Origin: a virus
IMG/VR virus record: IMGVR_UViG_3300021964_000012
Coordinates: 1 to 64,000 of that record
Direction: 5' to 3' (one strand)
Length of the DNA: 64,000 nucleotides
Position numbers and translations under genes: made by a program. This document shows, piece by piece, positions 21,813 to 48,257 of the stretch; position 1 is the stretch's first letter; each line of letters starts with the position of its first letter. The notes below the pieces were generated by a model. That model had not been told where the DNA came from, made no database searches, and saw only the letters and a program-made list of their open reading frames with translations.

Positions 21813-22115
21813 ATGCAAACAGATCAACTTTCCCAAAATATTAAAACAAGATTTAACCATCAACAAGCAAGGACTATTTTGCGTGAAACCTATCAGGCCA
21901 AGATGGTTTTTGCACACAATGGCGGCATGTGGCGTGCATCACCTGAACTGATTGTGTTGTGCAATTCGTGCGAAGGCACTGTTGTGCTAGAAGACATATA
22001 CAATACTCCAGTTAGTGTCGATAGCAATGAATTATGTGACTTAGCAAAACAACGCTGGCAAGAACAAATGAATGCTTGGCAAGCAGAATACAAAGAAATC
22101 TCAAAAAATCGATGA
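21813..22115 (+). CDS. hypothetical protein
   Basis: 100 aa, ATG start. Its stop overlaps the next start (ATGA at 22112-22115). Confidence 0.55.
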   Translation: MQTDQLSQNIKTRFNHQQARTILRETYQAKMVFAHNGGMWRASPELIVLCNSCEGTVVLEDIYNTPVSVDSNELCDLAKQRWQEQMNAWQAEYKEISKNR

Positions 22116-22906
22116 CAGTTGGTGCTTTGATTTTTGCTTTTGATAGCGAGATATCTTACACTAGATTGGCAATGGAATGTGCAAGTCGTGTAATCAAATA
22201 TCTTGATATTCCTGTCACGCTTGTAACGGACAAACACATTGACACAGACGTGTTTGAAAAACAAATCATTGTTGACAGAGGTGCTGATACCAATCGTCGA
22301 TTTTTTGTTGATAGACAATCATCTACAACTTGGTATAATTTTGGAAGATATCGTGCTTTAGAATTGTCGCCATACACCAGAACACTGCTCATTGACAGTG
22401 ACTATATGATCAACAATGATGCACTGCTACCATTTTTTACAAGCTCACAACCTTTTTTGTGTCATAGATCAGTACAGAGTATACATCATGCTAAATCAAG
22501 AATAGAAAAGTTTGGTACCAAAAACACAAACATGTGGTGGGCCACTGTGGTTATATTTGAAAAAAGCAATAGTTTCACAGAAGATGTGTTTACAGTTTGG
22601 AAAATGGTCCAAGAAAATTATAAACACTATGCTGAACTTTTTGGTTTTAGTACAAAACAGTTTAGAAATGACTATGCACTAAGCATTGCTCTTTTATTGT
22701 GCAACGGAAATCTACATCCAACACAGTGTGAAATTCCGTGGCCTTTGTTAAATGTTGATACTGATGTAAAAGTAAGTTATATGGACAACACCTGGTGGAT
22801 CGAGTACCAAGAAAAAAATAACAATAAAAAAATATGTGTGAAAAACAATGATTTACACGTGATGTGTAAAACTTATCTAGAAGAATTATATGCAATACCA
22901 AGCTGA
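22112..22906 (+). CDS. putative glycosyltransferase, GT8-like (GT-A fold)
   Basis: Start moved to ATG 22112 (ATGA overlap with the upstream stop); the track start 22076 would overlap by 40 nt. ALIFAFDSEISYTRLAMECASRVIKYLDIPVTLVTD plus a DxD-like LLIDSDYMI. Paralogous to the next gene. Confidence 0.5.
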   Translation: MTVGALIFAFDSEISYTRLAMECASRVIKYLDIPVTLVTDKHIDTDVFEKQIIVDRGADTNRRFFVDRQSSTTWYNFGRYRALELSPYTRTLLIDSDYMINNDALLPFFTSSQPFLCHRSVQSIHHAKSRIEKFGTKNTNMWWATVVIFEKSNSFTEDVFTVWKMVQENYKHYAELFGFSTKQFRNDYALSIALLLCNGNLHPTQCEIPWPLLNVDTDVKVSYMDNTWWIEYQEKNNNKKICVKNNDLHVMCKTYLEELYAIPS

Positions 22907-22916
22907 AAAAGGATAC

Positions 22917-23669
22917 ATGATAGTTGCTGGTCTCGACGAGCAAGTAGACTATTTGACATGTGCTATCACTCTGGCACGAAGTATAAAATACTGGCACAAA
23001 GATGCAAAGGTATGTTTACTTACAGATGTTGAAAACTATCAAAACAGTGTATTTGACTATGTGGTAAATTTTCCTTATGGAAATACTGGCGGCTGGACCA
23101 CAGATTGGCAAGTGTTTGATGCAAGCCCTTTCCATGAAACTGTCAAACTAGAGGCAGATATGCTGGTAAGTGGTCCAATTGATCACTGGTGGACACTGTT
23201 CAGGAACAAACCTGTCTGGATTTCCTCAGGCTGCAGAGACTTTCATGGTCAAACTGCAAAAAATCGACACTATCGCAAAATCTTTGATCAGAATAACCTT
23301 CCAGATGTTTATAATGCCATAACATATTGGAGAGTGAGCAGAGAAGCACAAAACTTTTTTTATCAGACAAGGCAAATCTTTGAACAATGGGATTCAGTAA
23401 AAACTATGATACAGGGTGCTCAAGACGAAATAGCCAGCACAGATCTAGTTTATGCTTTGGGTGCAGATGAATTTGTTACACCTGGTGTAGGTCCGCAGAT
23501 TGTTCATATGAAGTCGCACATAATTGGAACCAGTGCAGAAGATTGGAGTAAAGAACTAGTTTGGGAAGTGATTGATGGAGTGTTACGTATCAACGGACAT
23601 AATCAAACTGGAATCGTACACTATAATCAAAAACACCTAGCCAAAAATTTTGGAGACTATTATGGATGA
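22917..23669 (+). CDS. putative glycosyltransferase-like protein, paralogue of 22112-22906
   Basis: Start moved to ATG 22917 (AAAGGA SD, no overlap). MIVAGLDEQVDYLTCAITLARSIKYWHKDAKVCLLTD aligns with the N-terminus of the upstream gene. The DxD position reads EADMLV. Confidence 0.45.
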   Translation: MIVAGLDEQVDYLTCAITLARSIKYWHKDAKVCLLTDVENYQNSVFDYVVNFPYGNTGGWTTDWQVFDASPFHETVKLEADMLVSGPIDHWWTLFRNKPVWISSGCRDFHGQTAKNRHYRKIFDQNNLPDVYNAITYWRVSREAQNFFYQTRQIFEQWDSVKTMIQGAQDEIASTDLVYALGADEFVTPGVGPQIVHMKSHIIGTSAEDWSKELVWEVIDGVLRINGHNQTGIVHYNQKHLAKNFGDYYG

Positions 23670-24009
23670 AGATGTATTTGCAATTTTTAATCGTTTGATA
23701 GCCGATATAGAAAAAAATAAGGTTGACTATGAGTACAGATTATACTATAATAAAGAAACATGTGAGCCTCTTTTTTATACCATGGATGATAAATCTCAAG
23801 GTGATTATATTGTAGTCTCGAAAGAACAATATACCGAAGGACGTTATGATGTCAGGATACGTAACGGCATTATTGAAAAATTAGTGGATGCCGAAGTTTG
23901 GACCAAACTTGTACCAAGCAATGAAGGAACAACTACTAGAGCAGACAACGTGATGATTATAGATCAAAATGGTTCATTTAAATGGAAAATTAAAAGCTAC
24001 TATCAATAA
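23662..24009 (+). CDS. hypothetical protein
   Basis: The track start 23650 is TTG. ATG 23662 gives an 8-nt overlap with the upstream stop (ATGGATGA). 115 aa. Confidence 0.5.
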   Translation: MDEDVFAIFNRLIADIEKNKVDYEYRLYYNKETCEPLFYTMDDKSQGDYIVVSKEQYTEGRYDVRIRNGIIEKLVDAEVWTKLVPSNEGTTTRADNVMIIDQNGSFKWKIKSYYQ

Positions 24010-24036
24010 TTAAGGTGCAGGGGAAAAGTAAAAACA

Positions 24037-24966
24037 ATGAACAAAACTGTTGACGTGGCTGATATAGATTGTGTATATTTAAGCTACGATGAACCCAAGA
24101 AAGAAGAATTTTGGGTAAAAATCCGCAACATAGTGCCATGGGCAAAACGTGTTGATGGAGTAAAAGGTTCAGACGCCGCACACAAAGCTGCCGCTGAAGC
24201 CAGTGATACAGAACGTTTTATATTGATTGATGGTGACAATCTACCTGAAGAAAATTTTTTCAACGAAACCTTAGAATACAAAACTGAACAATATGAACAT
24301 GCCGTATATAGATGGCGTGCCCGTAACGATATCAATGGATTGATGTACGGCAATGGTGGTATAAGCTCGTGGACAAAAACATTTGTACGTAACATGCGTA
24401 CACACGAAGCCTCAGAAGGTGCAGATGACACTGACGTTGAGTTTTGCTTTGATGATCTATATTGGCCAATGTACAACTGTTACTCAACTACATACCCCGG
24501 AGAAAGTGCAAAGCATGCTTTTCGTGCGGGCTTTAGAGAAGGCGTAAAAATGTGCCTTGATAGAGGTACAAAGCCTAGTGCAAGTGAATTCAAAGAACGT
24601 GTACACAACAGGAACTTGGACCATTTAACCATCTGGCACAATGTAGGCGCAGATACTGAACATGGATTGTGGGCAATTGCAGGATCAAGGTTAGGCACAT
24701 GGAAAACCATGCTCAGTGATTGGGATTACAAACAGGTGCAAGACTTTGCTTTACTTGAAGATATGTGGAATGATGTTAAACATATACCTCCTGGAGAACT
24801 TGTTACTATAAAGGCAGAAGATCTAGCAAGACAATTAGCACTTCCTATGAACATATATACTCCGATACAAAGTAAGTTTTTTAAACACCATTATAGAAGT
24901 AATTGGCACAACAAAACAATTATGACTCGCGAAATAGACATAATTAAACAACAAGAGGGTTGGTAA
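24037..24966 (+). CDS. putative GT-A-like glycosyltransferase (DGD motif)
   Basis: 309 aa. DCVYLSYDEPKKEEFW...RVDGVKGSDAAHKAAAEASDTERFILIDGDNLP aligns with the C-terminal half of the 662-aa protein at 44248-46236 (LDIVFISNDESNAEKNW...RVDGVKGRAEAYRASLEASNTDW). Confidence 0.4.
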   Translation: MNKTVDVADIDCVYLSYDEPKKEEFWVKIRNIVPWAKRVDGVKGSDAAHKAAAEASDTERFILIDGDNLPEENFFNETLEYKTEQYEHAVYRWRARNDINGLMYGNGGISSWTKTFVRNMRTHEASEGADDTDVEFCFDDLYWPMYNCYSTTYPGESAKHAFRAGFREGVKMCLDRGTKPSASEFKERVHNRNLDHLTIWHNVGADTEHGLWAIAGSRLGTWKTMLSDWDYKQVQDFALLEDMWNDVKHIPPGELVTIKAEDLARQLALPMNIYTPIQSKFFKHHYRSNWHNKTIMTREIDIIKQQEGW

Positions 24967-25503
24967 ATGCTAGAAGCAGTTAAATTAAATTATGATATAG
25001 ACATATTCACACGTGCAGATTATCAAGTACATAGTGGTAGCTGTATTAGTCATCAGGTACATGAATTGAAAGATATACACGAAAAATTTGGAGGCTTTCC
25101 AGATAGTTATGATATGGGTAATACTCTTATTAGACAACTATGGTGGACTAGAGAACAAGTAGACTTTGAAGAAATAGGAAAGCAATTGGGAATAGAGGTT
25201 GTAACGATAAGCAGTATTTTACAACCCCCAGGCAACATTATACCAGTACACCGAGATACATTCTTTCAAATTAAAAAAGCACATCCTGATGATACTAGAT
25301 TAAAAATAAGAGCAAATATATACTTGCAAGACTGGTCCATTGGTGAGTTTCTGCAATACGAAAAAGATAACGAATGGCATAATTCAACACATTGGAAAGC
25401 AGGCGAAGGTTGGATTTGGGATAGCGACCATTTACATCTAAGTGCTAATGCCGGAATGAGAGACAAATATACACTACAGGTAAGCGGTTTTTATATCAGA
25501 TGA
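24967..25503 (+). CDS. cupin / 2OG-Fe(II) oxygenase-like protein (AspH/LpxO-like)
   Basis: 178 aa. HxD (IIPVHRDT) and a distal His (WDSDHLHLSANAG) are spaced as in cupin-type hydroxylases. TAAATG junction upstream and ATGA junction downstream. Confidence 0.35.
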   Translation: MLEAVKLNYDIDIFTRADYQVHSGSCISHQVHELKDIHEKFGGFPDSYDMGNTLIRQLWWTREQVDFEEIGKQLGIEVVTISSILQPPGNIIPVHRDTFFQIKKAHPDDTRLKIRANIYLQDWSIGEFLQYEKDNEWHNSTHWKAGEGWIWDSDHLHLSANAGMRDKYTLQVSGFYIR

Positions 25504-26510
25504 ATATTATTGTAAAAAGCAGTAATAACCATATCTGGAATCTTAATGAAATATATTCTAATATTGATACTGCTATGCTTCATAATCAAGATATTACTCT
25601 CGACTTAAACTACGAAGGTCCTGATATTTCGAATACTGAGCTCGAAAATTATATTATGCACTGTGCAAATTTACACAATTATAATCCATCAAGGATATCG
25701 GTACAAACTTCAAATCAAGTACAGAAACATGACGTTTTTAAAATTGATATACACTCGCCAATTTATATAAAAGAAATTGCAAAAGAATACGAACACACTT
25801 ATGACAAAGATATTATTAAACATTTTGGTATGTTTATAGGAAGAAGTAATGCACCAAGACTTGACTTAGCAAGTTACTTATATTATGCTGGATTTCGTGA
25901 TCAAAGTTATCTTACATACCATTATAATGTGCAAAGCCAATATCATAGAGAAAATATAGGTATTGAAGAATTGTTAATTGACTTTAACCACACAGATTTA
26001 GATATTCCGGCACTTTTTTTAAACAAATGTCCAATTGCAAGTGCTATAGTTGAGCCACAAACAAACATAGATTTATGTCATTGTCAACAGTTATTACAAA
26101 ACGATAATAAAAATTTCTTACAAAATTATCATAACTTTTTTGTTGAAATTGTTTGCGAAACCTGTTATACTGGTAATACGTTTTTCCCAACAGAAAAAAC
26201 TTGGCGACCAATATTACTTAAAACTCCTTTTATTATACAAGGACCACAATGGTACTTGCACAGATTAAAAGATATGGGTTTTAAAACATTCAGTGATTGG
26301 TGGGACGAAGGTTACAGCGAAGATCCTGCTTCTTGGCAACCTACAGAAATTAAAAAAGTTATAAGTTCTATTAGTGAACTAGGGATTACTAACTTACAAG
26401 AAATGTATAGAGAAATGCAGCCAGTACTTGAACATAATAAAAAAAGGTTTTTAGAACTTACGAGCAACGATTTTGACATATTTAAAAATGACAAATATCA
26501 AACAAAATAA
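25500..26510 (+). CDS. putative glycosyltransferase, TEK-motif family (fucosyltransferase-like C-terminal motif)
   Basis: 336 aa. C-terminal block VEIVCET...PTEKTWRPILLKTPFIIQGPQWYLHRLKDMGFKTFSDWWDEGYSED is shared with three other ORFs in the window and is reminiscent of the GT10-type ..E(N)S...(Y)xTEK motif. Confidence 0.45.
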   Translation: MNIIVKSSNNHIWNLNEIYSNIDTAMLHNQDITLDLNYEGPDISNTELENYIMHCANLHNYNPSRISVQTSNQVQKHDVFKIDIHSPIYIKEIAKEYEHTYDKDIIKHFGMFIGRSNAPRLDLASYLYYAGFRDQSYLTYHYNVQSQYHRENIGIEELLIDFNHTDLDIPALFLNKCPIASAIVEPQTNIDLCHCQQLLQNDNKNFLQNYHNFFVEIVCETCYTGNTFFPTEKTWRPILLKTPFIIQGPQWYLHRLKDMGFKTFSDWWDEGYSEDPASWQPTEIKKVISSISELGITNLQEMYREMQPVLEHNKKRFLELTSNDFDIFKNDKYQTK

Positions 26511-27927
26511 AGGTGATGGTGTTGATGAGAACTTCAAAAGTGATTTCTTATCAGATGCAGAACGTGCTGAACAAAAGTTAAATACTGTATCACCAAGTTT
26601 TTGTTTAGCTAAATGGAAGCAACTTAGTTTGCATTTAACAACTGGTATGAATAATAGTTGTTATCATCCTCCATTGCATAGGGCAGATGCAAACGCAATC
26701 AGAGACAATCCTAGTGCATTGCATAACACAGAACACAAAAAACAACAACGTAAATTGATGTTGGAAGGTACGCGACCCACTGAGTGTAGTTACTGCTGGG
26801 CTATGGAAGACAATGGTAAACTCAGTGACAGACACTATCGTTCAGGTGAGCCTTGGGCAATTAAAGACTTTGAAACTATAAAAAATTCTTCATGGGATCA
26901 AGATATTACTCCTAGTTATGTTGAAGTAGATTTTAATAGTGCATGTAATCTCAGTTGCAGTTATTGTTCTCCCCAGTATAGTTCAACATGGATGAAAGAA
27001 ACACAACGTGAAGGTGCATGGCCAACATCAACACCACACAATGATCCTAGTCACTTTGTAGGAGAACGCAGGCCCATACCTGCAAGAGAACACAATCCAT
27101 ATGTAGAAGCATTTTGGGAGTGGTGGCCTACACTTTATCCAGAACTTGAACATTTTAGAATGACCGGTGGCGAACCAATGATGGATAAAAACACATATCG
27201 TGTTTTTGATTACGTGCTACAAAATCCTTCGCAAAAGTTACATTTAAGTACAACTTCAAATTTCAGTGTAGAAGAAAAACTTTGGCAACGTTACAAAGCA
27301 TATGTCACTATGCTTTGCGAAAGTCCAGGTACAGTTGAACATTTTATGCAATATGTGAGTCTGGACGGTATGTTTAAGCCAGCAGAATACATGCGTCATG
27401 GTTTAGATTTTAATTTGCTCTGGGATCGAGTAAATCAATTTTTGAACGACATACCAGAACGCAGTAGTATCACTTTTATAATTACTATGAATAATCTTAG
27501 TGTAACCACACTGAAGAATCTGTTTGCTGGTATACTTGGACTTAGGCAAATATACAGTAACACCTATCAACGTGTATGGTTTGATACACCTGTACTACGT
27601 ACACCTACCTGGCAGAGTTTGCAGTTATTGCCAGAAAGTTATGTATATGAACTTGAGCTTTGCAAGACGTGGATGAATGATCAATTAGAAAAACCTGAAA
27701 CACGTTTTAAAGGATTTAAAGATTACGAAGTTAACAGGCTAGACAGAGACATTGCTTGGATGCGTAACGGACAACATCTCGATCCTGTCTATATTAACAA
27801 AAACAAAGCAGACTTCTACAGGTTTTTTAACGAACACGATAGACGTAGAGGCACAGACTTTTTAAAAACTTTTCCTGAAATGTCATCTTGGTGGGAAGAG
27901 TGCAAATATTTGGCTAGTAAACAATAA
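26488..27927 (+). CDS. radical SAM enzyme with N-terminal SPASM/twitch-like Cys motif (long subtype)
   Basis: The track start 26473 is TTG; ATG 26488 chosen. CNLSCSYCSP (CxxxCxxC), GGEPMM. N-terminal FCLAKW..(14)..SCYHP ... CSYCWAMEDNG. Paralogous to 29812-31170 along the whole length. Confidence 0.8.
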   Translation: MTNIKQNKGDGVDENFKSDFLSDAERAEQKLNTVSPSFCLAKWKQLSLHLTTGMNNSCYHPPLHRADANAIRDNPSALHNTEHKKQQRKLMLEGTRPTECSYCWAMEDNGKLSDRHYRSGEPWAIKDFETIKNSSWDQDITPSYVEVDFNSACNLSCSYCSPQYSSTWMKETQREGAWPTSTPHNDPSHFVGERRPIPAREHNPYVEAFWEWWPTLYPELEHFRMTGGEPMMDKNTYRVFDYVLQNPSQKLHLSTTSNFSVEEKLWQRYKAYVTMLCESPGTVEHFMQYVSLDGMFKPAEYMRHGLDFNLLWDRVNQFLNDIPERSSITFIITMNNLSVTTLKNLFAGILGLRQIYSNTYQRVWFDTPVLRTPTWQSLQLLPESYVYELELCKTWMNDQLEKPETRFKGFKDYEVNRLDRDIAWMRNGQHLDPVYINKNKADFYRFFNEHDRRRGTDFLKTFPEMSSWWEECKYLASKQ

Positions 27928-27942
27928 GCGATAACTACATTT

Positions 27943-28776
27943 ATGAAAGTTATAGTTACAGGATCCGGTGGTTTCTTAGGAAGCCACACAGTAAAATATT
28001 TCCGCAATAAAGGTCACGAAGTCACTGCATTTACACAAGATGTACGTCGTAACCTGCCTTACGAAAACTTTGATTGTTTGTGTCATTTTGCTGCCTATGT
28101 TGGTGGACGTAAAGGTATTGATAATAATAAATGGCTTATTACTGAAAATATAGAAATTGATAGAATTACATTTAGATGGGCTGAAGAATGGTGTAAGAAA
28201 ATAATCTATCCTAGCAGTTGTGCGGCCTATCCTCTGCACCTACAAGAAATGCCTGACACACCGATGCAAGAAGAACAGTTTGGAAGTAGTAAAACTTTTG
28301 ACATATACGGGCTTGCTAAAGTTGTTGCAGAAAGTATGCTTAAAACATTACACATTCCTGTACACGTCATGCGACCTTTTAGCATATACGGCCCTGGACA
28401 AGACTTGGATTATCCGATACCTGCAATAATACAAAGAGCAAAGAAAGGTGAGTGTAGTGTGTGGGGAAGTGGTACACAAACAAGAGACTGGGTTTACATA
28501 GATGATGCACTGAAAATATTTGAATACCTACTACACAAACAAGAATCTACTACAGTAAATATTGCAACAGGCAAAGCAATAACATTCAAAGAAATAGCAG
28601 AAACAGTATATAAGTTAATGCATGGTGTAAAAATTCCTGTGAAGACACAAACAGACCAACCCGAAGGTGCTGGACATAGGGTTGGTAGCACTGAGCGTAT
28701 GAGCAGTCTTGGGCTGAGATGTGATATACCAATTGAATACGGAATTAGAAAGATGATCGAATGGTCACAAGAATAG
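27943..28776 (+). CDS. NAD-dependent sugar epimerase/dehydratase (extended SDR)
   Basis: 277 aa. Rossmann motif VTGSGGFLGSH, catalytic SS...YGLAK (YxxxK). Confidence 0.8.
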   Translation: MKVIVTGSGGFLGSHTVKYFRNKGHEVTAFTQDVRRNLPYENFDCLCHFAAYVGGRKGIDNNKWLITENIEIDRITFRWAEEWCKKIIYPSSCAAYPLHLQEMPDTPMQEEQFGSSKTFDIYGLAKVVAESMLKTLHIPVHVMRPFSIYGPGQDLDYPIPAIIQRAKKGECSVWGSGTQTRDWVYIDDALKIFEYLLHKQESTTVNIATGKAITFKEIAETVYKLMHGVKIPVKTQTDQPEGAGHRVGSTERMSSLGLRCDIPIEYGIRKMIEWSQE

Positions 28777-36579: not shown

Positions 36580-36682
36580 GATAAAATGGTTCAAGAATCT
36601 TATCAGCAAAATAAAACTAGAAATAAGATATCGTAAAAAATTAAAAGAACTGAGGAAAAGGGATCCTTTTATATACAAATGA
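36578..36682 (+). CDS. small basic ORF (34 aa), hypothetical
   Basis: MIKWFKNLISKIKLEIRYRKKLKELRKRDPFIYK. AAGGAG lies 7 nt upstream, and the stop overlaps the metK start (ATGA). Below the ORF-track size cutoff. It conflicts with use of the overlapping promoter candidate. Confidence 0.3.
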   Translation: MIKWFKNLISKIKLEIRYRKKLKELRKRDPFIYK

Positions 36683-40228: not shown

Positions 40229-40539
40229 CCAAAGAAAACGATTTAAGACAACGTGTAATAGAATCACTTCAAACAGTATTTGATCCTGAGATGCCCAGTA
40301 TAAGTGTTTACGATTTAGGTTTAATCTATAAGATAGAGATCAAAGGTGACTGGGTTGGCATAGAACATACACTAACTAGTATGGCATGTCCTTTTGCAGA
40401 TCAAATTTGTGCCGATATAGAACATGCAGTTATTAGTACACCTGGCGTGCGTGCTATTGATAGACAATTGGTATTTGAACCTATTTTTACAATAGAAATG
40501 GTTCCTGAAGAAACCAAACTAATAATGGGCTGGTACTAA
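40225..40539 (+). CDS. DUF59 / SufT-PaaD-like Fe-S cluster assembly protein
   Basis: Start moved to ATG 40225 (ATGA overlap). LRQRVIESLQTVFDPEMPSISVYDLGLIYKIEI...TLTSMACPFAD fits the DUF59 pattern, including the conserved Cys. Confidence 0.7.
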   Translation: MTKENDLRQRVIESLQTVFDPEMPSISVYDLGLIYKIEIKGDWVGIEHTLTSMACPFADQICADIEHAVISTPGVRAIDRQLVFEPIFTIEMVPEETKLIMGWY

Positions 40540-40607: not shown

Positions 40608-41297
40608 TTAGAACTTTGGTGCTATGTTTACGGGATTATCTATCCAATTGTATAATTCTTCCGCTATCTTTTCATGACCAAGTTCACTTGGATGACCATC
40701 ACCTGAAATAAAGTTGTCATTTGTATAGCTTATTTGTGTAAGGTTTCCAATGGTACCGGGGACTAATTCTCCTGATTTTCCATTGGCAGCAAGTAGCTCC
40801 ATTGCATTTTCTTTAGCATTTTTGTAAAAACGCGATTTGTCAATTTCTGGCACCAGTGTCGGATGCTGCCAACCAAGCAGATAGGTGTCTCGAATATGGT
40901 ATTTGGTGCAAAGATTTTGTAAAATATACAAGGTGTTGTTAAGGTGCCATTCACCTAGTTTATTTGTGTATACCAATCTATAATAGAGTTTATCTCTATC
41001 GTTTTGTGGATGCATTTCGATTGCCTTACCACTTTCATCAAGTGCTATTTGTCTTTCTAAAGCAGTGATAAAAAATATTGCACTATAGGTATGGTCTTTT
41101 TGATAGTCATTCTCAAGGAATTTTCTTAATTGAAATAGCATATGATGTACACTGCTTGAACCTTGACTAAGATCAATTAATTCGCAATTGAGTCTTCTTG
41201 CTAGTATACCTGCATATATTTTTTCTGGCGGATATAGTCCTCCAATTGCCTGACCAGTGGCCCAACTGTCGCCAAAGTTTAGTAGATAGTGTGTCAA
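40608..41297 (-). CDS. SGNH/GDSL hydrolase (esterase / O-acyl hydrolase)
   Basis: 229 aa, TTG start in a TTGA overlap. Block I NFGDSWATG lies near the N-terminus and block V GDGHPSELGH near the C-terminus. Confidence 0.7.
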   Translation of the reverse strand: MTHYLLNFGDSWATGQAIGGLYPPEKIYAGILARRLNCELIDLSQGSSSVHHMLFQLRKFLENDYQKDHTYSAIFFITALERQIALDESGKAIEMHPQNDRDKLYYRLVYTNKLGEWHLNNTLYILQNLCTKYHIRDTYLLGWQHPTLVPEIDKSRFYKNAKENAMELLAANGKSGELVPGTIGNLTQISYTNDNFISGDGHPSELGHEKIAEELYNWIDNPVNIAPKF

Positions 41298-42325
41298 AGA
41301 TAGGTTTCCAATTCACCTTTACGTCTAATGTCTTGTGTACAACAACTAACGCCACCGTCCCAAAAGTAGCTGTGTCTAAGTTCTGAAATAATTGGGTTTA
41401 TACGATGCTTTTCACAGAAATCAAATACCTGTTTATTGTAGGCACTGAATATAACATTCTCTTCGTCTAGTACTAAGCAGTTTACATCAAATACAGTATC
41501 GCTTACATACCCAACCCATTCTTTGAGATAGGTATCAACAAATTTTGTAAACTCAGGTGTAGGAGTTTGTCCTTGTACATACCAAGCACCATTGAAGTTT
41601 TCTTCTTTGAATTTACCTACTGCCATTGCATGCCATATTGTGCTAGATTCAAGTTTACTAACTTCCCAACCTGGAAAGTCTGAGTCTAGGTCCAATTGGT
41701 CGTCCCATTTACTACTCAATATCACACCAGGCTTTAGAATTGCAAATACTGCATCGCCATGTCCATCTGTGATTGCTTCATGAAAACGATATCGACTGTC
41801 TAAACAATTTTCTTGTATCCAACGACTTTGATCTGGTTTAAGATAATCACTATTATCAAAGAATATATCGGTCCCACAACGTACTATACAACTTGCACTT
41901 GCACCGGCTACAACACAATCTGGATCATGTGCTAAAAACTCGCCATGAGGATTAATCACTGCATCACCATATTCAGCACAAATATCATCTAATTCAAGTA
42001 CTCTGAGAACACGTAACAGTTTGTCACCTAAGGTGATTTGCCAATCTCTTGGCGTTAAAGGCGGCAACGGTGCACCATTGTCTTTTATATTGAAATATTG
42101 AAAATCTTCTTTGCTAATCAGACCAGGACGTTTAACAAGTGCACCATATTGCTCGCAGGTCTTTTGTAAATTATCTAAGTCTTCATTTGTTTCATCTAAT
42201 ATCTGCCCTAATTGATCTCGTACTGTAGAGTTGTTAATAAAATCAAAATAATCTGGAGTGTATGCTCTACCTACTATAACTTCTTCTAGAGGTTGCCAAC
42301 TGGTGTAACTATTTACTTTGGACAT
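41294..42325 (-). CDS. amidinotransferase, StrB1 / glycine amidinotransferase (AGAT) family
   Basis: 343 aa. N-terminal VNSYTSWQPLEEVIVG (StrB1: VHNEWDPLEEVIVG) and C-terminal FWDGGVSCCTQDIRRKGELETYL (StrB1: LGGGFHCATLDVRRTGALETYQF), including the catalytic Cys position. Confidence 0.85.
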   Translation of the reverse strand: MSKVNSYTSWQPLEEVIVGRAYTPDYFDFINNSTVRDQLGQILDETNEDLDNLQKTCEQYGALVKRPGLISKEDFQYFNIKDNGAPLPPLTPRDWQITLGDKLLRVLRVLELDDICAEYGDAVINPHGEFLAHDPDCVVAGASASCIVRCGTDIFFDNSDYLKPDQSRWIQENCLDSRYRFHEAITDGHGDAVFAILKPGVILSSKWDDQLDLDSDFPGWEVSKLESSTIWHAMAVGKFKEENFNGAWYVQGQTPTPEFTKFVDTYLKEWVGYVSDTVFDVNCLVLDEENVIFSAYNKQVFDFCEKHRINPIISELRHSYFWDGGVSCCTQDIRRKGELETYL

Positions 42326-43200
42326 ATTAATATATCATTGCTTTCTTTGTTTAAGAACAATTGTTGATTATGTATGAGATCATCTTTGCAATCCACATAC
42401 ATACTGTGCGTCTTTTTTGATTTTGCAATTCTACACATTTCTGTACATACTGCCTTCCAACGTTCAGTTGCATCTTCAATCTCATCATATGAATGATCAA
42501 CTACATGATCAAATGTTTTATATCCCATTTCACGTAATTGAGTTACTGACCCCATTGCCCCTGCTAAGACAAATGGTTGACAGTTTTTAATTGCTCTAAA
42601 AACTTTTTCAGTTAATCTGACAGGACCGTTGAGATCACTTTCTATAACAAAATTAAAGTAAGCATCACTGTGATGCAGTCCTACTGTGTATTTCATGTCT
42701 GCATGTTCGTCTGGTGTCAATAAGTCACAATGAAAAGGAGCCATTTTTAAAAAAAATTCTGTATGATGTTTTAGACTTCCTAAGTTGCTAGTATCAATTG
42801 GGTTTATATCATCTTCCACAGTGATTCGATTGTTATATCCAAAGTATCCTTTCTTGTGTAAACCTTTACTCCATAATCTTGCCATTGTGTATGCACGCCA
42901 TTGTCTGTGTGTGCGGACAAGTGCAGTAAAATTCTTGCTCCGTTCTTGAGTATGAAATACAGTAGGCATACTTCTATTACGATGGCGGTAAAGCAGTTCA
43001 TCGCTACACGTATAGGTAATACCTGCGAGATCACGACTTTTAGTGGATTTTTCGATAAAATGTAAATTTTCTGCCTTAAAACCTGCTCGTACAGCATCAG
43101 CACTAACATTTTTTACTAATAAATTTTCTGGTAATAAAAAATAAAGATTTGTAATGTTTTTAAACATAATAGTTTCAGCTAGATCTGTTATCAAATCCAT
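42313..43200 (-). CDS. putative glycosyltransferase, TEK-motif family
   Basis: 295 aa. FVIESDLNGPVRLTEKVFRAIKNCQPFVLAGAMGSVTQLREMGYKTFDHVVDHSYDEIED. Confidence 0.45.
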   Translation of the reverse strand: MDLITDLAETIMFKNITNLYFLLPENLLVKNVSADAVRAGFKAENLHFIEKSTKSRDLAGITYTCSDELLYRHRNRSMPTVFHTQERSKNFTALVRTHRQWRAYTMARLWSKGLHKKGYFGYNNRITVEDDINPIDTSNLGSLKHHTEFFLKMAPFHCDLLTPDEHADMKYTVGLHHSDAYFNFVIESDLNGPVRLTEKVFRAIKNCQPFVLAGAMGSVTQLREMGYKTFDHVVDHSYDEIEDATERWKAVCTEMCRIAKSKKTHSMYVDCKDDLIHNQQLFLNKESNDILICPK

Positions 43201-44249
43201 TTTGCCATCATTCCTTGTAGTTCATTCCATAAGAGTTTTTCAAAATCTGCACTGTAAAACCAATTGTAGTTGTGCTCTACAATGCTATTTACTGCGGTTT
43301 GCAAGGTGGTCTTTTCTTTTTGACTCATATTATTAATGTCTTGTAACAGTTTGCCTATCTCATATGTGCGAACTGAATCATCTGCTTCATCGTATGATTC
43401 GTCCCAAAATTCACTAAATGTTTTAAAACCATATCTACGCAAATACTCTAAGCTACCTTTGCAACTCTGTATTATAAAAGGTTGTTGCATTACAATTGGT
43501 TTGAAAGATTTTTCTGTTAGATGATTTTTACGTCCTCGATATACTGTTTCAGTAACTATGTGTATCAGACTATTGTTTGCTTGTTCCCATAAATCAATTT
43601 GATGGCTCTTTGCCGCATAACCTGACCCGTTATCTATCATTAAGGGTAGTCGAACCTGAGGACAATCTAAATCATACTTTACACATAATAATTGTAAACT
43701 TTGTCCTTCGTATGGACATACGTCTGGAAATGATATTAAATTTTTATCAAGTAAATCTCGCCCAACAAACTGTTGAAGCATTTCAATACGATGTTTACGT
43801 TCTCCACCAATTATGTTGTTAGGACAAAGAAAAGTATTATAAGGCTTGCGTTCTGAAAATTTTTGTGCTATACTAGTTCTATTATAACCTCGATACCAAT
43901 CAAGTGCAGCCCAGCCATGAAAGAAATAGTAGTCCATTTCAAGACCATAAGTATCTTTGGCCCAAGAAGCATCTTCGCTGTTGTATTCGCTCGTAACAAG
44001 TCTACATTTGTTTGTATGCAAATAAAGTGGTTTGAACTGGTCAATAAATGGTATAAATCTATTACGATAAATTGGTTCTTGATCCCACATTATAATTCTA
44101 TTATTAGGAACGCCATGTACTGCCGGCTTGTTACAAATATCCTTAAAATCTGTACTACCAAATGGGTCAAACCAATGGAGTCCTGTACTGGGTATGTTTT
44201 TAACAACTGGTACAAAAACACCATCGTAAATTTCATCAATTCTAATCAT
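43191..44249 (-). CDS. putative glycosyltransferase, TEK-motif family
   Basis: 352 aa. IVTETVYRGRKNHLTEKSFKPIVMQQPFIIQSCKGSLEYLRRYGFKTFSEFWDESYDEADD. Its ATG (44249-44247) overlaps the ATG of the divergent gene (44248-44250). Confidence 0.45.
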   Translation of the reverse strand: MIRIDEIYDGVFVPVVKNIPSTGLHWFDPFGSTDFKDICNKPAVHGVPNNRIIMWDQEPIYRNRFIPFIDQFKPLYLHTNKCRLVTSEYNSEDASWAKDTYGLEMDYYFFHGWAALDWYRGYNRTSIAQKFSERKPYNTFLCPNNIIGGERKHRIEMLQQFVGRDLLDKNLISFPDVCPYEGQSLQLLCVKYDLDCPQVRLPLMIDNGSGYAAKSHQIDLWEQANNSLIHIVTETVYRGRKNHLTEKSFKPIVMQQPFIIQSCKGSLEYLRRYGFKTFSEFWDESYDEADDSVRTYEIGKLLQDINNMSQKEKTTLQTAVNSIVEHNYNWFYSADFEKLLWNELQGMMAKWI

Positions 44250-46236
44250 GTTTGATAAATGTTACTCATACAATAAAGATTCTCTTGCACAGTGCAAGAC
44301 TAGGTACTTATGGGTACTAAATAAGCACTGTGATTATTCTAATTTTGACTTTGCCTGGGAGCCGGCTCCCTGGGAAAAAGATTTTAGACATGCTTTTGGA
44401 TCACAGTGGCAAAAGGATTCTGGTACATATCTTGTTCCAAAACATGGGTATACCGAAACAAAATACAATCAAGAACAAACAGTGACACGATTACCTACAC
44501 AGGATAATTGGGATAGCACAGAATTTGAATTTGACTATTCATGGCACCCTGATCCAACAGAGCCAGATTTTATCTATCAATTTGGCACACAATGGCAAAA
44601 AACAGGCGGCCCAAGGTACGTGATTCCTGGTGCTACAAACATAAAATATGTAGATAGTCCTCGCATTAATAAAACATCAGTTGATTTACATTGGGTTGTA
44701 CCTGAAGCAAATATCGAAAACTTTGATTATACATGGCATCCTGACAACACTGAGAAACCTTTCATTTATCAATTTGGCACACAACATCAAAAAACAGGTG
44801 GGCCACGATATGAGGTACCAGGAGCAATCGAAGTCAAGTATGTAGGAGATATTACCACAAAAGTAAAAGCTGTTGCTTCAGGCGTAGTGCTTATTAAACA
44901 TCTTAACAAAGACTTTGTTTATCAAGGTACAATTCCTATTTTAAGTACTACTAGATTTATATCAAACTATCTTGACACACTAATACGTGTTTTGAAAAAG
45001 CTAAATGGTCATGAGTATGTTTGGATAATAAGCGACCTATGCGATTATGAAAACTTTGACTTTAGTTGGCATCCTGAACTATGGCAACACAGCATGTTAC
45101 ATGTATTTCCTAGTAACGAACAAGAGTTTGGTGATACGTTTTTTATTAATGTAGAAAGTTTTTTGGAAAATGCAAAAAACATCAAATTGTTGGAATGGTA
45201 CAATCCTTTAAATTTTGTTCCTTATACAGTAAAACGTAAGGATTGTCCTCAGATAAAGTATGATTCAGACAGTGTAGTTGATGCAGTCTGGAGTCATAAT
45301 TTTCAAGAGCCAGTGGTACAATTTTACAGGTATAAACCAGAGAAACAAGTTACCATTAGTTTATGGCAAGAAAGACTCAGAACAGTTGTTCCTTTAGCAA
45401 AAGGAAGTGAGTGTGTGTTAGTACCTAAAGATGCAAAAAATTATATTAATACACAAGTATATGATTATAAATGGATAGATAAAAAACACAAACCTAAACA
45501 AGCTAGACCACTTGATATTGTTTTTATTAGCAATGATGAAAGCAATGCCGAAAAAAATTGGGAACATCTAATTAAAGTACATAAAGGTCAAAATCGTATT
45601 GTCAGAGTAGATGGAGTAAAAGGCAGAGCAGAAGCATATCGTGCTAGTTTAGAAGCAAGTAACACCGACTGGGCATTTTGTGTGTTCGCTAAACTTGAAG
45701 TGAACGCAGATTTTGATTGGACGTGGCAACCAGATAGGTTACAACAAGCAAAGCACTATATATTTCATGCTAAAAATCCTGTAAATGGATTGGTATATGG
45801 ACACATGGCAATGATTGCATATAATAAAAAACTTGTTGCAGTGAACCAATCTCAAGGGTTAGACTTTACACTTGATCAAGAACATGAAGTTGTGCCACTT
45901 CTCAGTGGTATTGCTCGTTATGCTGATGACCCATGGATTGCCTGGCGTAGTGCGTTTCGTGAATGTTTAAAGCTCAAAAATAGTTTGCCCAACATAGAAT
46001 CCAACTACCGTCTTAAACAGTGGTTAAAAGCAGATACAACGTCTGCTGTAGCTGGTTGGAGTGCAATTGGTGCACAAGATGCAGTTGATTACTATGACGC
46101 AGTTGAAGGCAATTTTGCAAAACTGCGTCTAACATACGAATGGGATTGGCTGGCAGAATACCTATTCAAGCAACACAATCTAACACCTGATCAATTATGT
46201 ACTCAACTTCAAGATCAGTCAATTCAGGGTATATAG
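44248..46236 (+). CDS. multi-repeat protein (five FD[FY]xW.P modules) with C-terminal GT-A-like domain
   Basis: 662 aa. Modules: NFDFAWEPAPWEKDFRHAFGSQWQK, FEFDYSWHPDPTEPDFIYQFGTQWQKTGGPRY, NFDYTWHPDNTEKPFIYQFGTQHQKTGGPRY, NFDFSWHPELWQHSMLHVF and DFDWTWQPDRLQQAKHYIF. The C-terminal half aligns with 24037-24966. Confidence 0.6.
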   Translation: MFDKCYSYNKDSLAQCKTRYLWVLNKHCDYSNFDFAWEPAPWEKDFRHAFGSQWQKDSGTYLVPKHGYTETKYNQEQTVTRLPTQDNWDSTEFEFDYSWHPDPTEPDFIYQFGTQWQKTGGPRYVIPGATNIKYVDSPRINKTSVDLHWVVPEANIENFDYTWHPDNTEKPFIYQFGTQHQKTGGPRYEVPGAIEVKYVGDITTKVKAVASGVVLIKHLNKDFVYQGTIPILSTTRFISNYLDTLIRVLKKLNGHEYVWIISDLCDYENFDFSWHPELWQHSMLHVFPSNEQEFGDTFFINVESFLENAKNIKLLEWYNPLNFVPYTVKRKDCPQIKYDSDSVVDAVWSHNFQEPVVQFYRYKPEKQVTISLWQERLRTVVPLAKGSECVLVPKDAKNYINTQVYDYKWIDKKHKPKQARPLDIVFISNDESNAEKNWEHLIKVHKGQNRIVRVDGVKGRAEAYRASLEASNTDWAFCVFAKLEVNADFDWTWQPDRLQQAKHYIFHAKNPVNGLVYGHMAMIAYNKKLVAVNQSQGLDFTLDQEHEVVPLLSGIARYADDPWIAWRSAFRECLKLKNSLPNIESNYRLKQWLKADTTSAVAGWSAIGAQDAVDYYDAVEGNFAKLRLTYEWDWLAEYLFKQHNLTPDQLCTQLQDQSIQGI

Positions 46237-47260
46237 GTAAACTAAGCACACGTCGTGAAAGGCTTGTACTGCTGGCAAGCAATGGTTTTACACCATGAAA
46301 TGATCCTATTTCGTTAATACCATATTCATAGTGTACTTTGGAATCTATACCTGCTTGTTGTAAATACTCTTTTATTTTATTTCTATCTGTATTGCAATCA
46401 ATGACAAATTTATGAAAACAATGTTCCTGTAAATTAGAACTATCAATTAAGCATCTAATATCTGACTTTTCGTTTAATCTTTCTATCCAATAAAGACCAA
46501 TTGTTTGTCTGCGTTCTTGCCATTCGTCTATGTATTTGGTTTTAACAAGCATTGTTGCACAGTCTATTTCACTCATACGACTGTTTGTTCCACCAGTAAC
46601 ATGGGCCGACCCATTGGCTCTGTACCATCTTACAAATCTATCTATACTTACAGTGTTGGTAAGCACGGCTCCGCCGTTGGCATAGTTTGCAAGATTCTTT
46701 GTAGGATCAAAACTTATTGCACTGGTGGAGATTCTTTTACAATCCCAACTGAGCCAATGCTGAGCCGCATCTTCTACCAAGATCCAATCGTGTTCTGCAA
46801 CCAAATCTCTAAAACGTTGTGTTTGATAATTCTTTAGACTGTTGCCATACAATCCTACCAAACACACTGCCATTGTGTTGTAGTGATGTGGTTGTATACT
46901 GTCAATATCCAGCATGCCATATGAGTCAGTATCAGCTACCACAACTTCCCATCCTGCTGAAATCCATGAGTTTGCAGTTGCACGATAGGTTAAGTTCGGA
47001 ACGATAACCTGTGGCTTATTGAGATTAAGTTGTTTGTAATGATAACGTGCTATTGCTTCAAGTGCAACTGTACCTGAACCAATTGTAATGGCATGATCAA
47101 CGTTGTTTCGTTTTGCTAACCATGATTCAAATTCTTGTGTGTAGTTGCCATTCATCAGTTGGCCACTACGCAATACTATATCAATGGTATCGAGAACTTC
47201 TGATCTAAGGTTATTATACTGTTTTTTTAGTCCAGTAAACGGAATTTCTAAGCCACTCAT
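46166..47260 (-). CDS. DegT/DnrJ/EryC1/StrS-family PLP-dependent sugar aminotransferase
   Basis: 364 aa. IPFTGLKKQYNNLRSEVLDTIDIVLRSGQLMNGNYTQEFESWLA, GSGTVALEA, SFDPTKNL (PLP Lys), and SLPIYPELTDLEVEYIIDQV at the C-terminus. Confidence 0.85.
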   Translation of the reverse strand: MSGLEIPFTGLKKQYNNLRSEVLDTIDIVLRSGQLMNGNYTQEFESWLAKRNNVDHAITIGSGTVALEAIARYHYKQLNLNKPQVIVPNLTYRATANSWISAGWEVVVADTDSYGMLDIDSIQPHHYNTMAVCLVGLYGNSLKNYQTQRFRDLVAEHDWILVEDAAQHWLSWDCKRISTSAISFDPTKNLANYANGGAVLTNTVSIDRFVRWYRANGSAHVTGGTNSRMSEIDCATMLVKTKYIDEWQERRQTIGLYWIERLNEKSDIRCLIDSSNLQEHCFHKFVIDCNTDRNKIKEYLQQAGIDSKVHYEYGINEIGSFHGVKPLLASSTSLSRRVLSLPIYPELTDLEVEYIIDQVLDCVA

Positions 47261-48257
47261 GGTATAGTTTGATGCCTTCTTCTAAGTTGATTTTTGGATC
47301 AAAGTTCAAATCCGTTTTTGCTTTATCAATGTTTAATGTGCCTCTACTAGGCATATTTGCATCTCGATCATTGATCTCAACTGTGCCTTTGCCTACAATT
47401 TTAACAACTGCGTCTGCGGCTTCTTTTATTGTTTTAGCATCACCTTTAGTTAGATGATAGATGCCAGTTTTACCCTTCAGCAATGCTAAAATCATTCCTT
47501 CGGCTAGATCATCAACATAGGTAAAATCCAATCTCTCATCTTCACCATTTACTGATAGTGTTCTATCTGCTTTAGCATTTAGAATAAATTTTCCTATAAC
47601 TCTATCACAGTTATCCAATGGGCCATAAACTGCACTTGGTCGAACTGTTACATAATCAAGGTTGTGTTGTTTATTAAAGTTTTCTACCAATTTTTCACCA
47701 GCATGTTTCCATATAGCATAACTGCCTTTTGGATCTGGAGTGTGTGTTTCATCAGCAGGAAACGAAAAGTCGCCAAGTACCATGCTTGAACTTACATACA
47801 ATAACCTTTTGATGTTGTGTCTTGCACTGTTTTCCAATATGTTAGCAAGTCCCTGACACATTGTATGTGCAGCTTCTACTGGGTTTTCACTTGCCAACTT
47901 TTCATTTGGAAAACTAGCAAGATGTACAACATAGTCTGGTTTCAATTTTAAGAAAATATCATTTACCAATTCAATTTCAGCAACATCAATTTTGTGAATC
48001 ATTGTGTCATCATCAAATTTTGCCAGTCTTTCATTGTATAGATATTCTAATTCACTTTTGTCTAATAGTCCGTAAGTGGTTAGTGCATCAATTACTTCGA
48101 CTCGATGATTTTGTTTTTGCAACTGTTCAACAACCTTGTGCCCAATGAAGCCAAGACCTCCTGTCACAAGTATTCTTTTTTGTTCAACCTTTACTGCGGT
48201 TTGTTTAGGTTGTCTTGTGATTGATTTTTTCTTTTTTCTATTCTTTGCCATGAGCAT
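47214..48257 (-). CDS. NAD-dependent sugar epimerase/dehydratase (extended SDR) with basic N-terminal extension
   Basis: ILVTGGLGFIGHKV Rossmann motif, SSS...YAIWK (YxxxK). N-terminal MLMAKNRKKKKSITRQPKQTAVKVEQKR precedes the fold. ATG 48251 is an equally possible start. Confidence 0.8.
   Translation of the reverse strand: MLMAKNRKKKKSITRQPKQTAVKVEQKRILVTGGLGFIGHKVVEQLQKQNHRVEVIDALTTYGLLDKSELEYLYNERLAKFDDDTMIHKIDVAEIELVNDIFLKLKPDYVVHLASFPNEKLASENPVEAAHTMCQGLANILENSARHNIKRLLYVSSSMVLGDFSFPADETHTPDPKGSYAIWKHAGEKLVENFNKQHNLDYVTVRPSAVYGPLDNCDRVIGKFILNAKADRTLSVNGEDERLDFTYVDDLAEGMILALLKGKTGIYHLTKGDAKTIKEAADAVVKIVGKGTVEINDRDANMPSRGTLNIDKAKTDLNFDPKINLEEGIKLYHEWLRNSVYWTKKTV

Follow-up and report, generated by a model that had tools for sequence, protein, structure and literature searches.

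Glycan gene clusters lie beside the tail-fibre genes of marine phages, and to our knowledge their function has never been tested. In pelagimyophages, the host-recognition clusters found next to the tail fibres contain GT8-type glycosyltransferase (GT) genes, lipopolysaccharide (LPS) genes and cassettes of radical S-adenosylmethionine (SAM) genes (PMC7029224). The cyanophage S-SCSM2R carries a trio of DegT-like, radical SAM and amidinotransferase genes, and its virion preparation contained a second amidinotransferase (PMC12801897). Outside marine phages, glycosylation of capsids and tails is on record for mycobacteriophages (Freeman et al. 2023, as cited in PMC12619734). Here we analyse a block of 26 closely packed open reading frames (ORFs), g01 to g26, at positions 22112-48257 of a 64,000-nucleotide stretch of viral DNA (IMG/VR record IMGVR_UViG_3300021964_000012, positions 1 to 64,000; hereafter 'the window'). 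An abundant, uncultured clade of Rak2-like jumbo phages inherits this block vertically as a core module at a fixed site after the tail-fibre genes; the five radical SAM enzymes are the invariant centre of the block, not add-on tailoring steps. We give about an even chance to the view that it encodes a phage pathway of soluble proteins for the assembly and tailoring of a glycoconjugate, probably decorating the virion fibres.

How far is the block conserved? In IMG/VR, 97 contigs, the longest of 344 kb, carry relatives of the radical SAM gene g11 with 57-93% identity. Placing every protein of the block on 80 related loci revealed a recurring order: g01-g02-(g03)-g04, further on g07, then g10-g11-g12-g14-g15-(g17), followed by g21, g22 and g23 on the opposite strand, g24, and a pair of genes for a DegT aminotransferase and a short-chain dehydrogenase/reductase (SDR). 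The five radical SAM genes have one-to-one orthologues (at 40% identity or more) in the same order in 52 of the 53 loci that span the radical SAM run, the remaining locus having an extra copy. The upstream order is kept as well (giant ORF-u2-u3-u4-u5-g01, with u3 fibre-like). The upstream boundary is formed by u5 (21813-22115, plus strand), a conserved ORF of 100 amino acids without a Pfam match, whose stop codon overlaps the start of g01 (ATGA) and which lies immediately 5' of g01 in 57 related loci, the most divergent ones included. The radical SAM genes are about as conserved as the baseplate wedge gene: on the same contigs, the identities of g11 and of the wedge protein are 91/97, 83/95, 89/85, 81/82, 74/64, 69/63 and 62/61 percent, respectively. 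The abundance of the clade shows in the wedge gene, which has at least 595 matches in IMG/VR, and in g04 (see below).

The most divergent lineage (for example locus L065) has a gapless 12-gene version of the block, composed of its invariant half (the two GT8-like proteins g01 and g02, g04, the five radical SAM enzymes, g15 and g24) and of the DegT and SDR genes. In all loci but one (L073), g15 directly follows g14. The lineage-variable part consists of g05, g08, g17, g18, g20, g21 and the GT-B paralogues, which number 0-5 per locus and occupy differing sites among the radical SAM genes. Both g17, which most lineages have, and g21 are missing from most of the most divergent group, where L073 has g17. 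Others are rarer still: g05 was found in 4 loci, g13 in 16, the SAM synthetase gene metK (g16) in 11, g18 in three and the DUF59 gene g19 in 5, while the orthologue of g08 (79-84% identity) is confined to the close relatives of the window, with weak SDR matches elsewhere. The DegT/SDR pair, also counted with the variable genes, keeps its position with an identity of just 24-49%, so that the sugar probably differs among lineages. MetK, the nucleosidase g13 and the DUF59 protein are restricted to the close relatives of the window, where the nucleosidase gene separates radical SAM genes four and five, and the MetK and DUF59 genes lie just 3' of the radical SAM run; they are late additions, outside the ancestral design. 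An earlier reading of this DNA, made from the letters of the sequence (hereafter 'the original prediction'), had described an island working as one biosynthetic system with a dedicated SAM supply and by-product removal. The idea of a single system holds, as the genes are co-inherited and rich in sugar-nucleotide, GT and group-transfer enzymes. The block is not an accessory island but an inherited core of the clade in a fixed position. As to the SAM-related genes, they are indeed interleaved with the others in this lineage, but they were added recently and occur in close relatives only.

The assignment of the window to Rak2-like phages comes from its baseplate wedge protein (1522-4929), which shares 33-35% identity with its counterparts in Atu_ph07, Phosso, SCTP-2, GAP32 and CBB, all Rak2-like jumbo myoviruses. 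Proteins of the window are found identically on a metagenomic contig of 328,292 bp, and a close homologue of its MetK bears the name of a Tara Oceans surface sample. 'Moraphages' (PMC12619734) was considered as a published name for the clade and dropped, as that paper contains neither 'radical' nor 'Rak2' and gives no link. Directly 3' of the wedge gene lies a single ORF of 4490 amino acids (4933-18405, plus strand), which matches phrog_10938 (virion structural protein), Pfam FG-GAP repeats and, weakly, CBM5/12. Its product may be a giant fibre or adhesin, and could serve the enzymes encoded downstream as an acceptor.

Genes g01 to g19 follow on the plus strand; g20 to g23 are on the minus strand, g24 on the plus strand, and g25 and g26 on the minus strand, leading into thyX, which was confirmed by Pfam. 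Between u3 and g19, 14 of 21 same-strand junctions overlap by 4-23 nucleotides (ATGA, GTGA, ATGGATGA and similar) and one is a direct TAAATG abutment; all three junctions of the g20-g23 run overlap. The tight packing and frequent overlaps thus agree with the original prediction, except that it had counted about 27 genes instead of 26. The GC content is flat, at 35-39% throughout the block and its flanks, and gives no compositional hint of recent import. None of the 26 proteins has a 19-residue Kyte-Doolittle window of 1.6 or more, that is, a membrane-like segment. A scan of the block with Rfam found no RNA element, such as a SAM riboswitch ahead of metK. We discarded a hydrophobic ORF of 38 amino acids located 3' of g19, since it is not conserved in relatives.

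By sequence, the five radical SAM enzymes, g07 (26488-27927), g10 (29881-31170), g11 (31154-32437), g12 (32434-33639) and g14 (34196-35506), all on the plus strand, are members of one NCBIfam subfamily, NF033640 ('twitch domain-containing radical SAM protein', N_Twi_rSAM). This family is defined by sequence only; against its curated cut-off of 170 bits, the five proteins score 299, 293, 405, 342 and 283 bits, respectively, in agreement with the five paralogues announced by the original prediction. All five belong to the core, and g07 has orthologues in all spanning loci. The CX3CX2C motif (C148, C152 and C155) and a GGEP motif (G210-G211-E212-P213) are invariant in all five paralogues and also among the orthologues of g11. 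Four N-terminal cysteines (C33, C51, C94 and C97) are invariant in the five paralogues as well, and their spacing of 18/43/3 residues is close to that of the four cysteines binding the auxiliary cluster of BtrN. The twitch domain precedes the radical SAM barrel: in g11, g12 and g14, the Pfam SPASM match (residues 9-98) is N-terminal to the Radical_SAM match, and positions 8-102 of the family profile align with residues 164-262 of BtrN, its C-terminal twitch domain. SPASM, Radical_SAM and Fer4_12 are the only Pfam domains seen in these proteins. The nearest solved structures by sequence profile are TvgB, viperin, BlsE, MoaA and BtrN; a search of the PDB with the g11 sequence gave no match at an expectation value (E) of 0.01. 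Among phage records, tblastn found remote relatives only, in Vibrio phages K566 and K567, Ralstonia phage RsoM2USA and a single-cell virus contig.

The GT-like proteins were harder to classify. The original prediction had listed eight of them in three families; paralogy indeed groups them as g01/g02, g04/g24 and g06/g09/g22/g23, but no Pfam, PHROGs or NCBIfam profile matches them and their folds are weakly supported. The two GT8-like putative GTs, g01 (22112-22906, plus strand) and g02 (22890-23669, plus strand), are core proteins and paralogues (hhalign 99.5%). Invariant acidic residues are D95 and D97 in g01, within an LDADY-type motif, and E88 and D90 in g02. Over this DxD region the g02 profile weakly matches glycogenin-1/2 (GT8) in the PDB (E 0.05), and a combined g01/g02 profile finds nearly only glycogenin, again weakly (E 0.06). 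A member-by-member Pfam scan of 42 orthologues of g01 and g02 gave no match.

The most conserved protein outside the radical SAM enzymes is g04 (24037-24966, plus strand), with a median identity of 67% across loci and relatives in at least 8000 metagenome protein clusters at 90% identity. Its AlphaFold2 model (predicted local distance difference test, pLDDT, 74) matches GT-A folds (E 3e-3 to 1e-2, top probability 0.99), with the PBCV-1 capsid glycosyltransferase A64R first, along with RmlA-type nucleotidyltransferases and hyaluronan synthase. A DGD motif (D65-G66-D67) is invariant in the alignment of g04 orthologues. Sequence-profile searches of the PDB with g04, g15 and g01 returned no significant match, nor did Pfam with g04. 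The protein g24 (44248-46236, plus strand), a two-part core protein that no lineage lacks and that is longer in divergent lineages, matches g04 over residues 419-584 (hhalign 97.8%), where the aligned position is not a DxD; its N-terminal part shows no relation to the g04 and g02 families by hhalign.

Members of the third family, g06 (25500-26510, plus strand), g09 (28761-29819, plus strand), g22 (42313-43200, minus strand) and g23 (43191-44249, minus strand), were linked by blastp from g23. They share only an ET...TEK...P motif in the family alignment, and the family has no match in a sequence-profile search of the PDB. The model of g23 (pLDDT 88.7) has GT-B enzymes as eight of its nine best PDB matches (E 1e-3 to 1e-2, template modelling score 0.22-0.46); the matches include SenB, SdgB, T4 alpha-glucosyltransferase, TarM, GtfC and FucT. 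In a viral structure library, the same model matches fucosyltransferase/GT10 and RfaG-type proteins. These structural matches, weak as they are, support a two-Rossmann-domain GT-B fold (GT10-like) for the family.

Three sequences fall in no assignable family and match no profile of Pfam, PHROGs or NCBIfam: g03 (23662-24009, plus strand), a small conserved protein that the most divergent lineage lacks, residues 1-418 of g24, and the core protein g15 (35499-36554, plus strand). The latter has no match in the PDB or in Pfam, even with a member-by-member scan of its orthologues, and hhalign shows no relation to the GT-B family. An exhaustive search of 1.84 billion proteins yielded 337 representatives of g15; in ten of its relatives, three of them fusion proteins, we found no Pfam domain and no resemblance to other proteins of the block.

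The tailoring and sugar-nucleotide enzymes are more readily recognised, and most were named correctly in the original prediction. Pfam gathering scores are reached by MetK, g18 and g19, and by both domains of g17 (37890-39395, plus strand), a NodU/CmcH-family carbamoyltransferase (Carbam_trans_N 122 bits, Carbam_trans_C 172 bits). MetK (g16, 36679-37779, plus strand) has all three domains of the S-adenosylmethionine synthetases (E 1e-31 to 1e-58), g18 (39386-40228, plus strand) is an FkbM-family methyltransferase (Methyltransf_21, 4e-17) and g19 (40225-40539, plus strand) a DUF59/FeS_assembly_P protein (6.5e-16). The amidinotransferase g21 (41294-42325, minus strand) was recognised through its orthologue profile, which over its full length matches AGAT, SxtG, HsvA and StrB1 (E 8e-27 to 8e-19; for AGAT 8e-27, in three segments covering the whole protein). 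Its residues D153, H189 and C328 are invariant and lie within the aligned catalytic motifs, forming a Cys-His-Asp triad. Five related loci (L078 3982-5028, L039 4678-5697, L048 4757-5779, L010 4380-5438 and L017 19408-20493) have a further amidinotransferase paralogue with about 30% identity to g21, inserted in four of them between g04 and the first radical SAM gene.

The DegT/DnrJ/EryC1-family sugar aminotransferase g25 (46166-47260, minus strand; Pfam 1e-53, 183 bits) has the lysine motif that binds pyridoxal phosphate (SFDPTK). Pfam also supports the two SDRs. The first, g08 (27943-28776, plus strand), is a short extended SDR of the epimerase/reductase type (Epimerase 2e-31). The second, g26 (47214-48257, minus strand), had been proposed as an epimerase/dehydratase. 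It is an extended SDR (Epimerase 4e-45) with GxxGxxG and YxxxK motifs (the latter as YAIWK), predicted to act on a nucleotide sugar. The TDE signature is a hallmark of 4,6-dehydratases; at this position g26 reads SSSMV, without glutamate, and its top NCBIfam model, dTDP-glucose 4,6-dehydratase, scores 135 bits against a cut-off of 365. We therefore rejected g26 as a nucleoside diphosphate (NDP)-hexose 4,6-dehydratase and kept it as an extended SDR. A similar reserve applies to g13 (33636-34202, plus strand), a compact protein which the original prediction had called a methylthioadenosine (MTA)/S-adenosylhomocysteine (SAH) nucleosidase. Pfam supports this (PNP_UDP_1, 2e-13), but the protein is below the cut-offs of the NCBIfam nucleosidase models (81 vs 129 and 59 vs 169 bits), so that we refer to it as MTA/SAH/5'-deoxyadenosine-nucleosidase-like. 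We take its EEE, GSAGG, EMEA and ISD motifs to align with those of E. coli Pfs. Two further proposals, an SGNH esterase and a cupin-like protein, found no profile support: g20 (40608-41297, minus strand) and g05 (24967-25503, plus strand) match nothing in Pfam, PHROGs or NCBIfam. Both are accessory ORFs, and by motif they are candidates for an SGNH hydrolase (N-terminal FGDSW) and for a cupin or 2-oxoglutarate oxygenase (HxD...H), respectively.

The window contains two perfect TTGACA-N17-TATAAT matches, where 0.15 would be expected in 64 kb, and both are inside the block on the plus strand: one ahead of the g10-g15 run (29728-29756), the other ahead of metK (36551-36579). Perfect promoters also occur directly 5' of the g10 orthologue in some relatives and directly 5' of the MetK orthologue in six (L002-L005, L010 and L011), which suggests transcription of g10-g15 and of metK by a host sigma-70 factor. 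At about 70% identity, the whole module is also present on two contigs assigned to the Haliscomenobacter sp. metagenome-assembled genome (MAG) EUL_031 (L081, 183 kb, and L082, 148 kb), whose gene sets differ. Probably two genomes of jumbo phages were binned with a bacterial MAG, the alternative being a hint at Saprospiraceae hosts. We considered a Bacteroidota host on this ground but did not adopt it, because the contigs may be binned phage and the canonical promoters argue against it. Bacteroidota promoters differ from the canonical sigma-70 consensus, so that the promoters of the block may point to a host with canonical ones.

Beyond phages, a genome scan with g11 orthologues identified 59 loci. 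The bacterial relatives, 27-47% identical to g11, fall into three kinds of setting. In Oligoflexia, Verrucomicrobiales and one unclassified MAG, 4-9 radical SAM paralogues form arrays that stand alone. In three such loci (L135 2964-12560, L139 607-11484 and L084 3182-8765) the 4-9 adjoining paralogues have no recognisable sugar or peptide genes alongside; judging by N-terminal sequences, the array of L135 adjoins an apparent ATP synthase operon. In the Elusimicrobia MAG MJ-2014_bin-0981 (L086, L094 and about 14 more contigs), tandem arrays encode up to seven proteins of 540-1115 amino acids in which a C-terminal N-twitch radical SAM domain, about 40% identical to g11, is fused to N-terminal repeats that look like tetratricopeptide repeats (TPRs) by eye; the paralogues have thus multiplied greatly in this MAG. 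The third setting comprises MAG loci of Saprospiraceae and Crocinitomicaceae (L085 and L101), where pairs of radical SAM genes lie near UbiA-GT1(-GDSL) fusions and a WelO5-like halogenase homologue, together with methyltransferases, an ABC ATPase, an SDR, a CmcH-like gene, and a confirmed PhyH dioxygenase with several look-alike paralogues. From its gene content, this setting looks like a glycolipid or natural-product locus. In four Bacteroidota loci the g11 relatives are near SDR genes, some also near DegT- or CmcH-like genes, and Pfam scans of two of the four found GT1 and methyltransferase genes too. Hidden Markov models of g04, g15, the GT8-like pair, the GT-B family and the amidinotransferase found no match in the bacterial radical SAM loci.

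Some features of the flanks deserve mention. Where the window has thyX (48238-48921), L065 has thyA-like (PPCH motif) and dihydrofolate reductase (DHFR)-like ORFs (18304-19678, minus strand), as judged from N-terminal sequence only: the thymidylate-synthesis neighbourhood is retained with its genes swapped. We found thyX in none of the related loci. Further along the window are a DUF2201 metallopeptidase/VWA-like protein (50443-51705, minus strand), 46% identical to proteins of PA5oct-type jumbo phages that bear inconsistent annotations, a nearby ATPase (phrog_1297; 52863-53957, minus strand) and three tRNA genes, Thr(tgt), Trp(cca) and Arg(acg), at 61903-63340 (minus strand).

What could such a block do? 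We propose the following scheme for the glycoconjugate pathway. The SDR and DegT enzymes would convert a host NDP-hexose into an NDP-aminosugar. GT-A and GT8-like enzymes would begin a glycan on a soluble cytoplasmic acceptor and the GT-B paralogues would lengthen it. The acceptor would most probably be the fibre or other virion proteins encoded directly upstream on the same strand. The amine could then be amidinated to a guanidino group, and hydroxyls carbamoylated or methylated. Each radical SAM enzyme is predicted to hold a SAM cluster and a four-cysteine, BtrN-like auxiliary cluster, and may abstract hydrogen (for oxidation, epimerisation or C-C coupling) from a conserved part of the product, either the core sugar or the acceptor. 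In the marine sub-lineage of the window, SAM turnover would be backed by MetK, with its own promoter, and by the DUF59 Fe-S factor, while the g13 nucleosidase would clear inhibitory 5'-deoxyadenosine, MTA and SAH. The absence of membrane-like segments in the 26 proteins implies that the block alone cannot make or export an envelope polysaccharide, and hence that the acceptor should be cytoplasmic. Moreover, the block prolongs the run of baseplate and fibre genes on the same strand, which fits virion proteins as acceptor; they are probably the target, judging from gene position and solubility. An amidinotransferase, a CmcH protein and an N-twitch radical SAM enzyme are also encoded by adjoining genes in an unrelated marine virus contig (Marine virus AG-345-D19, MH319727; 32%, 47% and 27% identity to the window, respectively), which we count in favour of the pathway. 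A more specific version, in which the five N-twitch radical SAM enzymes, with g04, g15 and g24, perform a new radical chemistry on carbohydrate or glycoprotein to produce an essential glycoconjugate of the virion surface in a globally abundant phage clade, is possible and we advance it tentatively.

Several observations weigh against the glycoconjugate pathway. None of the eight GT-like proteins is matched by Pfam or PHROGs, and the fold or profile matches behind their assignments are weak (E 1e-3 to 5e-2). No sugar-activating nucleotidyltransferase is evident in the block. The target is deduced purely from gene position, and, given the sigma-70-type promoters 5' of g10 and of metK, some genes of the block would seem to be transcribed separately from the late structural ones. 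Searches by family name and accession found no paper characterising NF033640 or the N-terminal twitch family. The remaining points concern the radical SAM enzymes, and raise an alternative that we hold unlikely but worth attention: that these enzymes are protein or peptide maturases, introducing cross-links, epimerisations or similar marks into a virion protein or another phage protein, with the GTs acting on the same target or separately. The top PDB sequence match of the radical SAM core is TvgB, a peptide-modifying cyclopropyl synthase of ribosomally synthesised and post-translationally modified peptides (E 2e-7), although viperin, BlsE, MoaA and BtrN, which have nucleotide or sugar substrates, score just below it. 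Twitch and SPASM radical SAM enzymes are frequently peptide maturases (PMC8326336). Many bacterial arrays of N-twitch radical SAM genes lack any sugar genes, as does Vibrio phage K566, which has four such enzymes and none of the other genes of the block. The TPR-like appearance of the repeats in the tandem Elusimicrobia fusions would hint at protein substrates. A conserved protein substrate would also be expected to leave radical SAM enzymes far more conserved than sugar-tailoring genes, which is what we see. However, the minimal module of L065 has no ORF of 80 amino acids or more between its core genes (shorter precursors being outside this screen) and no recognisable peptide-recognition domain was found. 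In every lineage the radical SAM genes are strictly syntenic with the GT-A, GT8-like and DegT/SDR genes, and in the close relatives of the window GT-B or SDR genes are even inserted among them.

Other targets of a glycan pathway must be weighed too. Remodelling of the host envelope is the usual account of LPS-type genes in marine myoviruses; here, LPS, O-antigen or capsule would be altered during infection, for example to block superinfection. The GT and LPS genes beside pelagimyophage tail fibres have been interpreted in this way (PMC7029224), GT8-like, DegT, SDR and carbamoyltransferase types are common in O-antigen and capsule loci, and some bacterial relatives of g11 occur in loci with GT1, ABC ATPase and SDR genes. 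The original prediction had itself pointed to a bacterial O-antigen or capsule locus as the match that would count against it, but the 26 proteins comprise no membrane steps: Pfam detects no initiating polyprenyl-phosphate transferase, no flippase or ABC exporter, no polymerase and no ligase, and there is no membrane-like segment. A strictly conserved core module, at the level of the baseplate, is also unlike the usual patchy host-conversion genes, and the core genes other than the radical SAM ones were not found in the bacterial radical SAM loci. We therefore regard envelope remodelling as unlikely. Hypermodification of the phage DNA, with a decorated glycan built on a modified base to evade restriction, seems improbable. 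We know of no DNA-modification pathway with the gene set of this block. Some phages do have GTs by which DNA is hypermodified with diverse glycans (Pyle et al. 2024, as cited in PMC12619734), the top structural matches of g23 include the DNA-bound T4 alpha-glucosyltransferase (E 6e-3) and the block adjoins thymidylate-synthesis genes in both lineages examined (thyX in the window, the thyA- and DHFR-like ORFs in L065, the latter seen in N-terminal sequence only). Yet for the other top matches of g23 the substrates are proteins, teichoic acid or a small-molecule selenium acceptor, ThyX implies an ordinary dTMP supply, and the scanned ORFs of the window include no recognisable hydroxymethylase or base-exchange enzyme. 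Least probable, in our opinion, is a diffusible aminoglycoside-like or nucleoside-like metabolite, produced for instance to inhibit competitors. A BtrN-like radical SAM enzyme, a DegT aminotransferase, StrB1-type and TobZ/NodU-type enzymes, a methyltransferase and GTs do fit the logic of aminoglycoside synthesis. However, Pfam and NCBIfam reveal no cyclitol synthase, exporter or self-resistance gene, eight GT-like genes exceed the expected need of a small aminoglycoside, and the amidino- and carbamoyltransferases are missing from most of the most divergent lineage, which places them outside the ancestral pathway; the authors of the S-SCSM2R study did call their similar, smaller trio 'antibiotic synthesis genes' (PMC12801897).

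If the tentative radical chemistry proposed above is correct, radical SAM enzymes would be a core part of virion assembly, and a first function would be available for a large, uncharacterised family that occurs as paralogue arrays in several bacterial lineages. The module already offers five co-working orthologous groups of NF033640 whose partners narrow the search for a substrate, and, for tailed phages, a concrete case of either radical modification or virion glycosylation. With MetK, a 5'-deoxyadenosine-type nucleosidase and an Fe-S factor gained in one lineage, within or beside the radical SAM run, a virus would be easing the limits that cofactor supply and by-products set on its enzymes.

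How does the block compare with known systems? Soluble GTs of PBCV-1, Mimivirus and mycobacteriophages act on virion proteins in the cytoplasm, without host membrane machinery, and the fibril glycosylation clusters of Mimivirus contain a DegT plus SDR route to an aminosugar. The likeness with PBCV-1 extends to g04, whose top structural match is the capsid glycosyltransferase A64R. We know of no radical SAM enzyme, amidinotransferase or carbamoyltransferase in the glycosylation systems of PBCV-1, Mimivirus or mycobacteriophages, and these systems have glycosylated virions, whereas the block is known from its genes. Aminoglycoside clusters (with BtrN for butirosin, StrB1 for streptomycin and TobZ for tobramycin) combine a twitch radical SAM enzyme, a sugar aminotransferase, an amidinotransferase, a NodU/CmcH carbamoyltransferase and GTs, as the block does. 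However, the twitch domain is C-terminal in BtrN of the butirosin pathway and N-terminal to the barrel in the window, which has five paralogues, and the block has a phage structural setting and lacks a cyclitol synthase, an exporter and a resistance gene.

Among phages, the original prediction was aware of no described cluster of this kind. A megablast search of the block against 50,697 phage records found no isolate that carries the module, but partial precedents exist (PMC7029224, PMC12801897 and MH319727). S-SCSM2R is a T4-like cyanophage whose three-gene set has low identity to the block, and neither it nor MH319727 has a run of five radical SAM genes or, by BLAST, g04 or g15. The clusters of pelagimyophages and cyanomyophages are large blocks next to the tail fibres that mix GT8-type GTs, LPS-type sugar genes and radical SAM cassettes. 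In the T4-like pelagimyophages, however, these clusters are hypervariable, radical SAM cassettes being gained and lost among close relatives (PMC7029224), whereas the Rak2-like jumbo phages of the clade described here have five fixed one-to-one orthologues. The block is thus of a known kind, the tail-fibre-adjacent glycan clusters of marine phages. New here is an arrangement in which variable sugar-tailoring genes are hung on an invariant scaffold of five radical SAM enzymes and three orphan proteins, and it is this five-enzyme scaffold, together with the support genes of the SAM cycle, that sets the block apart.

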